Part shown: one piece after another, positions 8,303 through 52,454 of the stretch | Layout of the letters: each line of letters starts with the position of its first letter | Position numbering within the stretch: the stretch's first letter is position 1 | Source of the DNA: Octopus vulgaris | Lineage: Eukaryota | Direction: 5' to 3' | DNA: 64,000 nt | Assembly: GCA_951406725.2 (NCBI GenBank) | Contig: OX597818.1 | Coordinates: forward strand, 93,930,001 to 93,994,000 | The notes under the pieces: model-generated | What the model was told of the DNA's origin: nothing | Seen by the model: only the letters and a program-made list of their open reading frames with translations | The model's database searches: none | Program-made: the position numbers and the translations under genes

Positions 8303-10699
8303 TTAATTTATTCTTTTAAAGGTTTTAAGAACCGCGGGATCGGTACTCTTTGGTAAAGAACTGCGACGAGGATGAAATGAGGTGTCTGGCGCCCATGTAC
8401 GTTTTTTACCAAAAATACTGTGTACTTTATCTCGTAATTTGGTCGCTGCTTTTTTGAAGATACGACGACCCGCGCGGTTATGTGAAGAGGAGATTGGATG
8501 CCGTACATTTGATGCAATTCGTTCCAGTGAATCGCGATGTAGATATGATAGCTCTGGACTATGTAGTTGATGTGATCTAGTATCTTCCAGTGATTCTGGT
8601 GGTCGACTAGATGGTTGAAATGGCTCTACATTAATGTCATAGTCTGGTTGTTCAGTGGAGCGAAGGCGACGTGCTATTGCTTCCCATTGTGATCTAGTAA
8701 ATTTCAGATCTCCTAATTGACTATATTGCTGTGAACGTGAACGGTCATGCTTGGAATTAGATGGCTCTACATGAATGTGATAGTCTGGTACATATCGGGA
8801 ACTATGTGGTTGTTCAGTGGAGCGAAGGCGCCGTACTATTGCCTCCCATTGTGATCTAGTAAGTTTCAGATCTCCTAATTGACTGTATAGTTGTGAACGT
8901 GAACGGTCATGCTTGGAATTAGATGGCTCTACATTAATGTCATGGTCTAGTACATATCGGGAACTATGTGGTTGTTCAGTGGAGCGAAGGCGCCGTACTA
9001 TTGCTTCCCATTGTGATCTAGTAAGTTTCAGATCTCCTAATTGACTGTATAGTTGTGAACGTGAACGGTCATGCTTGGAATTAGATGGCTCTACATTAAT
9101 GTCATGGTCTAGTACATATCGGGAACTATGTGGTTGTTCAGTGGAGCGAAGGCGCCGTACTATTGCTTCCCATTGTGATCTAGTAAGTTTCAGATCTCCT
9201 AATTGACTGTATAGTTGTGAACGTGAACAGTCATGCTTGGAATTAGATGGCTCTACATGAATGTGATAGTCTGATACATATCGTGGAGGTCGTCTATCAA
9301 TTTTCAGTGCAGCTCCACGTTTGCGTAATGGTTTTACGGTATGGAAACATTCTGATATATATCGTGGATGTAGTCTCTCAATTTTCAGTGGAGCTCCACG
9401 TTTGCGTAATGGTTTTACCGGATGGAAATATTCTGATATATATCGCGGACTATGTTGTTGATGTGATCTAGTATGTTCCAGTGATTCTGATGGCCGACTA
9501 GCTGGTTGAAATGGCTCTACATTAATGTCATAGTCTGATACATATCGTGGAGGTCGTATATCAACTCTCAGTGCAGTTTTGTGTACGTGTGGTGGTCCTA
9601 CATTGTGGTGATATTCTGATACATATCGTGAAGTATGTGGTTGTGAAGTGACGTGAGAGCCCCGGTTTTTCAATGCCTTTCGTAATCCATCAATCTCGTA
9701 ATTGACTATATCCAGTGAATCTCGTAATTGACTATATTGCTGTGAACGTGAAAGGCCTTGCTTGGATTTTGGGCTTGCTGAATTATTATTATTCTGTAAA
9801 TATGAAACACTCCAACACCGAAGAGGCGCTGAAACTTTGCTTTCAGAAATTCTTCTATGAGGATAATTTGTTTTTCTTTCAGATCTGTAATATGACATGT
9901 CTACCACCGAAAGTCTGTATTCACATGACGACATACGGTGAGGATATGGTTTTGGTATACTGAGGTGTTGTTCGTGTGTTGTGAAATTTTGGCATTCCTC
10001 AAATGGTCTTCTAGTTGACGAAATTCCATCATTATTTTCTGGTTGTTCCTGCCTTGAACGTTTAGGAATATAGAACGAGCATGTTAAATTTGTCTTACTA
10101 TTTTGAATCCTTTCCGTGGCTGTATTAATGCGATGTGGGTTTATTCTTGATATGGAAGATATTTTTCCTCCTTTGATTATGTATTTTTTGTTCGTTGCAA
10201 AATTTTCCTCGTCTTCTTTTGGTGAAAAGTTATCTAATTCTGCGCTTCTCTTGTTCAATTTTACTGGATGTTTGTCACGGCAGACATCCTTTTCTCCATT
10301 CAGTGTCTTACACTCCAATTTGTTGTTTACATACATGTTCTTATCGTCTGCTACTTCACATACACATCTCTTAGTTTTCTCGTCTTTTGAATAGTCATGT
10401 TTTGCTGTTTCATCATCATCATTTAACTGGTTATTGTTTTGATCTTCCATAACATCTATTTGAATCGTTTCCATCACATCACCAATATGATTCTCAGTAT
10501 TATTTTCACGATCGTCGTCTCGAGAATCAATGTGTCCAGTATTTTCTTCTGTAAAATCCTCGCCTTCATTCAGTTCTGTAGTTTTGTGTAATCCCTCATA
10601 TAGAACATCTGGATATTGCGAATGGTTAGCCAATTTTTCGGTTTCGGAACAGAGGTTCTTATAACACTTCGAAAAAACATAACTCTCTGTGGTATTCAT
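8303..10699 (-). CDS. P1: intronless uncharacterised Ser/Arg/His-rich repeat protein, about 798 aa (ORF track extends to 10801)
   Basis: Long open frame; acidic N-terminus shared with P2, P4 and P5; four 54-aa (162-bp) repeats and two 27-aa repeats. Start placed at the MNTTE ATG conserved between paralogues. Confidence 0.8.
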   Translation of the reverse strand: MNTTESYVFSKCYKNLCSETEKLANHSQYPDVLYEGLHKTTELNEGEDFTEENTGHIDSRDDDRENNTENHIGDVMETIQIDVMEDQNNNQLNDDDETAKHDYSKDEKTKRCVCEVADDKNMYVNNKLECKTLNGEKDVCRDKHPVKLNKRSAELDNFSPKEDEENFATNKKYIIKGGKISSISRINPHRINTATERIQNSKTNLTCSFYIPKRSRQEQPENNDGISSTRRPFEECQNFTTHEQHLSIPKPYPHRMSSCEYRLSVVDMSYYRSERKTNYPHRRISESKVSAPLRCWSVSYLQNNNNSASPKSKQGLSRSQQYSQLRDSLDIVNYEIDGLRKALKNRGSHVTSQPHTSRYVSEYHHNVGPPHVHKTALRVDIRPPRYVSDYDINVEPFQPASRPSESLEHTRSHQQHSPRYISEYFHPVKPLRKRGAPLKIERLHPRYISECFHTVKPLRKRGAALKIDRRPPRYVSDYHIHVEPSNSKHDCSRSQLYSQLGDLKLTRSQWEAIVRRLRSTEQPHSSRYVLDHDINVEPSNSKHDRSRSQLYSQLGDLKLTRSQWEAIVRRLRSTEQPHSSRYVLDHDINVEPSNSKHDRSRSQLYSQLGDLKLTRSQWEAIVRRLRSTEQPHSSRYVPDYHIHVEPSNSKHDRSRSQQYSQLGDLKFTRSQWEAIARRLRSTEQPDYDINVEPFQPSSRPPESLEDTRSHQLHSPELSYLHRDSLERIASNVRHPISSSHNRAGRRIFKKAATKLRDKVHSIFGKKRTWAPDTSFHPRRSSLPKSTDPAVLKTFKRIN

Positions 10700-10773
10700 T
10701 CTGGTCACCTCAAATTGACTCTCAATGCAGAGAAATGAAACTAAATGGTTTAATAATGATTTCCTTTCAACTA

Positions 10774-10781
10774 TGACGTCA
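10774..10781. promoter_or_regulatory. Full CRE palindrome upstream of P1
   Basis: TGACGTCA, 75 bp from the ATG at 10699; same position in all paralogues. Confidence 0.65.
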
Positions 10782-10869
10782 TCAATGAATGTGACAGTCA
10801 TTTTGGCATCATTTATTATTATTATTATTATTATTATTATTATTATTATTATTATTATTATTATTATTC

Positions 10870-51118: not shown

Positions 51119-51208
51119 TATACGTATAACACTACTACTACTACTACTACTACTACTACTACTACTACTACTACTGCATGATGCCGAAATGATTGTCGCA
51201 TTTATTGA

Positions 51209-51216
51209 TGACGTCA
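51209..51216. promoter_or_regulatory. Full CRE palindrome upstream of P5
   Basis: TGACGTCA ending 72 bp before the ATG at 51288. Confidence 0.65.
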
Positions 51217-51287
51217 CAGTTGAAAGTAAAACAATAAATCATTTAGTATAATTTCTGTCCATTGAGAATCAATGTGAGGTGACCAGC

Positions 51288-52454
51288 ATGAATACCACAG
51301 AGAATGATAGTTTTTCGAGTTATCAACACCTCTGCTACCAACCTGATCAAATGGCTGACCATAATCAATATCAAGACAATCTAAATGAAGAATCAGACCA
51401 AACTACAGGAGATAATAATGATATGTATTCTGAAGACGACAGTCGTGAAATAACTGATGAAGATGACATTGGTGATGAGAAGGAAAGTCAAAACAACGAC
51501 CAGTTAGACGAAGATTTCTCATCAGAAGATGACTATCCAAAAGACGAGAAAGCTGAGATCTGTGTGTGTGAAGTAGCAGACGATGAGAACGGAGGTGAAA
51601 ATAACATATTGGAAAGTAAGACACACAATGAAGACGAGAATGTCAGTCTGGATAACATTACAGTTAAATTAAAGAGTGGAACGGCAGAATTTGATAAATC
51701 TGTACCAAACGAAGACGAGGGTAATTATGACACGAGTATGAAATATGCAATCGAAGGAGGGAAAATAAATACGATGTCAGACACTTACCCACACAATGTG
51801 AATAGTGATCTGGATAGATATCAAGACGGTGAATCATTTGTAATATATCGAATGTTTTATATTCCTAAATTTCCAAGGAAGCGGGAACCAGAATATGAGG
51901 TTGAAAACATCCCGTATACTGGTGTCTATGAACTTGAAAGACCGTACAGTCCGAGAGGTTTATTAGAACGTCGTACCCGCTCAATATCAGCGTCAGGACG
52001 TCGTATAAAGCTACCACGGGAACGTCATACCCATTCCATCCTGTTACCTGAACATCATTTATATAAACGTCAAACCAGGTTAACCAAACCACTGAAATAT
52101 CGCACTGCTTCAGTACCACGATATAGCTCTGGAGATACACCGAGACCCAGTCCTTTTACCATACGGTCCCCTAAAAACTGTGTTTTTGTTGAGGGTGAAT
52201 CACGTGTAAAACTTGCACCTTATATACAGCCTCCTGATCTCCAAGAAGATGGTCATGTGTCTGGTATGTCCGTAACTGGGACGTCTTTTCCAGGTTTTGC
52301 AGTCGATCCTATATCCGTGCCAGAAGCTAAGTCGAAATATAAAGCTTTGTTTCGAAAGTGGGATCCAGTGTTTTATAATGTCGATCTTCCACCATTTAAA
52401 CAAAAGATAACTGTTAGCGAAATGCCAGATATTAAACGACAGATCTTTCAATAA
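51288..52454 (+). CDS. P5: shortest, most divergent, unexpanded paralogue, about 388 aa
   Basis: MNTTEND...MADHNQY...CVCEVADD...IEGGKI...FYIPK aligns with P1, P2 and P4; single C-terminal KWDPVFY...EMPDIKRQIFQ module. Confidence 0.8.
   Translation: MNTTENDSFSSYQHLCYQPDQMADHNQYQDNLNEESDQTTGDNNDMYSEDDSREITDEDDIGDEKESQNNDQLDEDFSSEDDYPKDEKAEICVCEVADDENGGENNILESKTHNEDENVSLDNITVKLKSGTAEFDKSVPNEDEGNYDTSMKYAIEGGKINTMSDTYPHNVNSDLDRYQDGESFVIYRMFYIPKFPRKREPEYEVENIPYTGVYELERPYSPRGLLERRTRSISASGRRIKLPRERHTHSILLPEHHLYKRQTRLTKPLKYRTASVPRYSSGDTPRPSPFTIRSPKNCVFVEGESRVKLAPYIQPPDLQEDGHVSGMSVTGTSFPGFAVDPISVPEAKSKYKALFRKWDPVFYNVDLPPFKQKITVSEMPDIKRQIFQ

Follow-up and report, generated by a model that had tools for sequence, protein, structure and literature searches.

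Is a cyclic AMP response element (CRE) that recurs at the same distance from five tandem genes of Octopus vulgaris a working control site, or a word that was copied along with the genes? The genes, here called P1 to P5, lie in a 64,000-nt stretch of contig OX597818.1 (assembly GCA_951406725.2, positions 93,930,001 to 93,994,000 of the forward strand), to which we refer as the window and from whose first letter all coordinates are counted. An exact word count finds five TGACGTCA octamers in the window and no more, located on the minus strand in front of P1 (10774..10781) and on the plus strand in front of P2 (14115..14122), P3 (25706..25713), P4 (40565..40572) and P5 (51209..51216), the same five places that a preliminary description of this DNA had given. 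Their context is ATGACGTCAT in P1, P2 and P3, GTGACGTCAT in P4 and ATGACGTCAC in P5; both flank changes preserve R-TGACGTCA-Y, and all five copies read RTGACGTCAY with an intact CpG, which is the sequence expected of a CRE. From the last base of the octamer to the homologous start we count 75, 75, 75, 75 and 72 nt for P1 to P5, again as described earlier (82 or 79 nt from the first base), the spacing differing among the copies by one 3-nt deletion. The homologous start holds as a position, whereas in P3 it reads ATA (25788) instead of ATG. The likeliest reading, to which we give roughly even credence, is that the octamer is a candidate binding site for a CREB1/ATF-type bZIP factor, functional within a compact promoter or leader.

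The five octamers are one ancestral site, copied by whole-gene duplication together with several hundred bases of 5' flank. When the window is compared with itself, the 5' flanks prove to be duplicated along with the genes, and the presence of the octamer in five copies therefore does not provide five independent signs of control; its distance to the start is fixed because the copies are colinear. Shuffled windows contain 1.0 TGACGTCA on average and reached five in 0 of 100 shuffles, a test that does not apply here since the five sites sit in duplicated DNA. A known motif common to duplicated genes is ordinary, and its five-fold repetition is explained by copying. The segment around the octamer (block B, ~110-130 bp) spans 10700..10811 on the minus strand for P1, where it holds an upstream ATG (10801), the octamer, an initiator-like word and CATTGAGA, and 14085..14196, 25676..25787, 40537..40646 and 51179..51287 on the plus strand for P2 to P5. 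Further upstream lies block A (P1, 11905..12215, minus strand; P2, 13353..13660, P3, 25345..25640, P4, 40215..40500, and P5, 50630..50860, plus strand), which is separated from the octamer by 170 and 168 nt in P3 and P4, both free of insertions, and by 422, 554 and 1226 nt in P5, P2 and P1, where microsatellites and insertions have widened the gap. Set against the stable spacing between octamer and start, and judged from few events, this growth would fit a short, self-contained promoter.

Beyond its repetition, the octamer is an unlikely word that was kept on every branch. The probability of a perfect CRE arising by chance in ~105 bp is 0.001-0.002. Once present, its columns are invariant in 8 of 8 cases compared to 67 of 104 elsewhere (one-sided Fisher P=0.035 for a window chosen after the fact), and other rate assumptions give P = 0.013-0.044; for this named window the chance is ~0.03. 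Together, these values may be taken as modest, after-the-fact support for function. Block B as a whole also changes slowly: its mismatch rate is lower than that of the far flank in all four comparable pairs (0.118/0.172, 0.170/0.233, 0.139/0.199 and 0.128/0.141), and it has fewer mismatches than the first 500-600 coding bases in five of six pairs, the exception being P2-P4 (0.157 vs 0.148). That the ~110-bp block B is non-coding and mildly constrained is largely shown.

The ancestral gene carried the CRE palindrome ~75 nt before its ATG, and duplications, visible in the self-comparison, brought it with the 5' flank to all five genes. If the site is functional, block B would serve as a short, TATA-poor promoter or leader, in which a CREB1/ATF-type bZIP dimer might bind RTGACGTCAY and transcription might start near an initiator-like word that follows the octamer by 32-38 nt. 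TYAKTY is the initiator consensus, and a match with its A at +32 and/or +38 past the octamer is present in four of the five copies (P1-P4): TTAGTT/TCATTT in P1 (A at 10742/10736), TTAGTT/TCAGTT in P4 (A at 40604/40610) and TCATTT in P2 (A at 14160). No TATA box is consistent across the five copies. The short leader resulting from such a start would be free of upstream ATGs; since the 120 nt upstream contain three to five other ATGs per copy, a start upstream of the octamer would place these inside each leader. All members of the family would then become active jointly, in one limited kind of cell.

To look at transcription, we compared the P2 region 14083-17700 (3618 bases) with the contigs of four out of 22 sequencing runs. 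X18, X19 and X20, which were retrieved with this very gene, come from one study (62-69 million letters), while X17 is a genome-sized run of 2.2 billion letters. Fourteen of the 22 runs were guessed to be RNA, and their shares of 0.10-0.13, close to that of the retroelement fragment upstream of P1 (830/8401 bases), were not used. Depth on the P2 open reading frame (ORF) relative to the high-copy repeat behind it is 8.3x, 16.5x and 3.5x in X18, X19 and X20 and 0.023 in X17, and from this high ratio we infer that X18-X20 are RNA-like runs in which the family is strongly transcribed. The repeat itself (16400-17600), which is shared with the 3' flank of P1, has an X17 depth of 200-1900 compared with 5-50 on the ORF. 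Block B was also considered as a high-copy mobile element, and this candidate is ruled out by the same run, which yields three contigs of depth 22-37 for it (85% likeness) as opposed to 200-1900 for the repeat 3' of P2. Contigs that begin downstream of the octamer would fit a transcription start on that side, but were not counted as evidence. Among them are P2-like contigs of high depth in X18, X19 and X20, whose first bases fall at 14165-14183, and a P4-type contig of X20 that starts at 40614, at a distance of 4 nt from the initiator-like A; in addition, nothing covers 14142-14153 in X18 and X20, and the first-bin depth is explained by the listed contigs. Our reason for leaving them aside is that the starts at 14165 and 14175 precede a variant by 30 nt, as assembly branch points do, that coverage holes prove nothing and that the three runs amount to one study.

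Several observations weigh against a functional CRE. In these same runs, two contigs cross the octamer position. One of them (X19 record 16) is of P4 type, matching the differences of P4 from P2 (17 letters, 278 between, 34 against 33), and begins ~64 nt upstream of the P4 octamer. The other is an X18 contig of depth 299, aligned to 14094-14130 after 255 loose letters; it fits none of the five genes and probably derives from a paralogue outside the window. In this contig, 37 nt at the octamer position align at 85% or more and the next 100 nt do not, which hints that this piece may be the conserved part. Given these two contigs, some RNA may begin upstream of the octamer; as contigs cannot show a start, the octamer could belong to the promoter, to the leader of minor transcripts, or to both. 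Furthermore, P5 lacks the initiator-like word at +32/+38, and the start-site bias of CREs is absent in fly, worm and sea squirt according to excerpts of a multi-species survey (PMC1796609), which lowers the prior for a promoter CRE in an invertebrate.

The conservation itself is also less telling than it may seem. Of the 135 columns in the block B alignment, 88 are invariant, and the preliminary description overstated its case in having the neighbouring bases differ around an octamer that is indeed invariant: CATTGAGA is a second invariant 8-mer within the block, and block A holds the longer invariant runs ATTAAAATC (9) and CGGAAATATA (10). Shuffling of columns shows that an invariant run of at least 8 is to be expected somewhere in block B (P=0.83). 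Among 16-column windows, the best begins with the first base of the octamer and has 15 invariant columns, which is unremarkable (P=0.26). Compared with block A, block B shows no significant excess of conservation (P=0.17). Little can be read from the intact CpG, since CpG is not depleted in the ORFs (observed/expected 0.94-1.04) and two of the seven CpGs in block A are likewise kept in all five copies. Named as a window, the octamer would count as more conserved than its flanks (P=0.035), yet inside block B it comes close to being no more conserved than the DNA around it. The earlier proposal that the genes are co-regulated through a functional CRE is plausible, but weakly supported by a Fisher test whose window was picked afterwards. 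CGGAAATATA, the longest run invariant across all five flanks (12007, minus strand; 13561, 25536, 40397 and 50787), contains a GGAA core that we take to be ETS-site-like, and is as strong a candidate element as the CRE.

Much of this is what the main rival would lead one to expect. This explanation, which we consider a serious possibility albeit a somewhat improbable one, holds that the octamer arose by chance in a leader that is young and duplicated, and that it survived owing to the short time and to mild constraint imposed for other reasons, such as the initiator or the 5' untranslated region (UTR), with the real promoter residing in block A or elsewhere. The 82-92% identity between copies of block B, the expected invariant run, the longer runs in block A and the contigs that cross the octamer site in two paralogues all agree with passive inheritance, and scanning very many windows would be expected to yield such coincidences. 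It does, however, need two of them, a perfect CRE in ~105 bp (~0.001-0.002) and its full retention (~0.03), which by a rough estimate still make a ~1-in-50 event after allowing for many textbook motifs and places. Moreover, if the promoter were in block A, insertions have pushed it up to 1.2 kb away in three of the five genes.

A second explanation, which we regard as quite improbable, places the octamer in coding sequence: translation would begin at the upstream ATG (MTVTFIDDV...), the octamer would supply the codons D-D-V, and P2, P4 and P5 would later have lost this 34-codon extension. No stop or frameshift interrupts the extension in P1 and P3, and 33 open codons have a chance probability of ~0.08. 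In P2 it is closed by TGA at 14152-14154, in P4 a 2-nt deletion (100 nt, not 102) puts the upstream ATG out of frame, and P5 has a 3-nt deletion and a TAA, all in line with the preliminary description; at 14153, all three X17 contigs, which may or may not include the counterpart of P2 itself, read T rather than the G of the P2 stop. Because each break is a separate single event, the ancestral extension was probably open; nevertheless, the frame is broken in three of five copies, one of them by a frameshift, and the octamer is retained in copies whose frame is dead. The upstream AAATGA is invariant in all five copies and P3 has lost the downstream ATG, but P3 has an in-frame ATG (25803) 15 nt beyond its ATA. 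The variable columns of the extension fall on codon positions 1, 2 and 3 in the proportion 7/12/9, with no third-position excess, and its pooled ratio of non-synonymous to synonymous differences (pN/pS) is 0.74, a weak test given that the main ORFs yield similar values (0.69-0.94). Of seven database matches, six have alignments that start at query residue 35 or beyond and one is weak and unrelated, and all eight gene models with a full-length N-terminus, which are predictions, begin downstream of the extension, from MNT in P0001 to P0003, P0005, P0006, P0008 and P0010 and from MADH in P0009. The model of P1 does so even though the P1 extension is open. With a frame broken in three of five copies and no codon-position bias, block B is probably promoter or 5' UTR and not coding, as had been proposed. 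That block B is instead the 3' end of an intron or a spliced leader, with TGAC as branch-point word and YAG or a later TTTAG as acceptor, is very unlikely. YAG does stand at +1..+3 in all five copies (TAG in four, CAG in P5), and microsatellites and mobile insertions are tolerated directly upstream, as they are in introns; but no pyrimidine tract precedes the YAG, both crossing contigs lack a joint at the octamer site, and 0 of the 15 joints and 0 of the 24 loose ends listed fit, out of tables with 192 and 685 further rows.

A functional bZIP site in octopus would have both precedents and differences. With the canonical CRE, the octopus copies share the perfect TGACGTCA palindrome with intact CpG near a gene's 5' end; the excerpts of PMC1796609 describe this element and its start-proximal bias, which they confine to vertebrates among the surveyed species, no mollusc included. 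The octopus copies also differ in being one inherited site. CREB1 isoforms exist in the molluscs Lymnaea and Aplysia, as stated in part of PMC11333461. The identical DNA word occurs in the spermatid promoters governed by CREM-tau/ACT, a mode of control that PMC5961101 presents, in the part available, as mammalian. A separate CREM gene and the tau/ACT switch are likewise known from mammals, and the octopus proteins are neither protamines nor transition proteins. CREM is probably a vertebrate duplicate, and protamines are small, very arginine-rich and wholly basic; lengths of 388-1514 aa, 6-12% Arg and an acidic N-terminus rule out both protein classes. A CREM/spermatid reading of the octopus site would hold by analogy with mammals only.

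Arginine/serine-rich repeats are common to these octopus proteins, protamines, sperm nuclear basic proteins and SRRM2, and the name that RefSeq gives to P4's relative in O. sinensis, 'serine/arginine repetitive matrix protein 2-like', most likely reflects composition. SRRM2 is defined by a cwf21 domain and by orthology across animals; P4 has no cwf21 match in Pfam and searches with the P1 N-terminus gave relatives in Octopus only, which excludes this assignment. Lineage-specific tandem gene arrays without similarity to known proteins have been described in squid, in the portion of PMC9068888 consulted. Like the cephalopod arrays of reflectins, suckerins and unnamed genes, the octopus genes are tandem and lack similarity to known proteins, with homologues in Octopus only; in contrast, their products have no secretion signal, and no sequence link to those families turned up, none having been looked for specifically.

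As to the cell type, male germ cells are a guess from gene features, given that the genes have single ORFs, evolve fast, are tandem, lineage-restricted and Arg/Ser-rich, and encode no hydrophobic signal stretch. Such features are often seen in testis genes. It is conceivable, though unlikely, that a private octopus array of at least nine intronless genes for disordered Arg/Ser-repeat proteins is co-activated post-meiotically in male germ cells by a CREB-family factor acting through the CRE and initiator, and that this matches the mammalian CREM-tau logic, whether it arose separately or goes back to a spermatid programme of early bilaterians. If functional, the site would supply an octopus gene family that is uncharacterised and apparently strongly transcribed with a compact promoter ready for use, and would allow a test of whether spermatid genes come under CREB-family control in animals other than vertebrates. 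Our literature search, with most subscription journals outside its coverage, returned no paper that deals with the family or with an octopus testis gene under CRE control, none that mentions the six family accessions searched, and no relevant paper on cephalopod core promoters. None of the searched family identifiers occurs in the supplements of two gonad papers, PMC11202624 (one file) and PMC6341066 (six files); the former names genes by other identifiers, and its blank therefore says nothing on expression.

Each of the five genes is a single ORF. P1 (8303..10699, minus strand) encodes 798 aa from MNTT, or 832 aa with the extension; on the plus strand, P2 (14197..16128) encodes 643 aa, P3 (25686..29822, from the upstream ATG) 1339 aa from 25803, P4 (40647..45191) 1514 aa with Arg/Ser-rich tandem repeats, and P5 (51288..52454) 388 aa. 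The proteins are hydrophilic, contain 6-12% Arg, 9-19% Ser and internal repeats, and have isoelectric points of 4.75-10.1; the first 100 residues are acidic in P1, P2, P4 and P5. No secretion signal or hydrophobic stretch is present in P1-P5, the highest 19-residue hydropathy being 0.06-0.77. With dN/dS of 0.69-0.94 in all six pairs, the 5' coding parts evolve almost neutrally. Homologue searches, some of them with the P1 N-terminus as query, turned up relatives in no genus other than Octopus (O. vulgaris, O. sinensis and O. bimaculoides), and 1.84 billion representatives gave seven matches, six family members and the weak unrelated one. The O. vulgaris proteins P0004, P0006, P0007 and P0009 are encoded outside the window, on a contig whose length equals that of the contig bearing the window's own proteins, so that the family has at least nine members. 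Pfam returned no convincing family for P1-P5, its matches being scattered repeat artefacts. In the ESM Atlas, the best feature matches of P0009 were SPATA6 (0.81) and TEX33 (0.76), leads only, as they lie under the 0.9 bar that shuffled proteins often approach; P0003 had no feature match there, and Atlas models of the family have a predicted local distance difference test (pLDDT) of 0.36-0.41.

P1 and P2 form a head-to-head inverted duplicate (6765-12267 and 13301-17538, 90-96% identical) that takes in block A at the 5' side and ~1 kb of 3' flank. P3 contains eight copies (26601-29810) of a ~90-aa module (DSSSGSCFSDY...L[NS]RxW...RPEMP..QC.FQ) without a Pfam family; the L[NS]RxW core of this module is also present in single copy at the end of P4 and in P0009 and in three copies in P0007, and the word WDxxTSR is likewise shared. 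Homologue searches with the N-terminal half of P3 and with the module alignment were blank, a weak result because the module search missed even P0007, which holds the module. The O. sinensis model P0002 ('isoform X2') has a beginning like that of P2 and P0006 and a P3-like end partly in another frame (14197-16128, 25830-26060); splicing or read-through from one neighbour into the next, a gene fusion, or an error in the model would account for this. In P0008 (1134 aa), the O. sinensis relative of P4, ~140 residues are missing from the N-terminal part, as are the last repeats. This suggests that the model contains an intron, or that a deletion or a copy-number change took place.

Mobile and repeated DNA surrounds the genes. 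A retroelement fragment of ~830 bp (10869..11702, ends approximate; zf-RVT E=1.5e-4, under the Pfam cut-off) sits between two (TTA/TAT)n tracts and begins ~90 bp upstream of the P1 octamer; P2 does not have it. The insertions between blocks A and B measure ~250 bp in P5 (50860-51130, resembling a short interspersed nuclear element by eye) and ~210 bp in P2 (13702-13912). Rfam gave 0 matches. Remnants of a Tc1-type transposase (HTH_SB, HTH_Tnp_Tc3_2) and reverse-transcriptase fragments (RVT_1, weak, and zf-RVT) are found at 18410-18862, 33748-36396 and 55398-60733, and include two related stretches in opposite orientation. A perfect 126-bp tandem duplicate at 20475-20728 is either recent or an assembly artefact. 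Finally, the window contains a 33-bp tandem array with an inverted arm (4495-4938) and a 680-bp self-complementary stretch (53055-53735, 81%).

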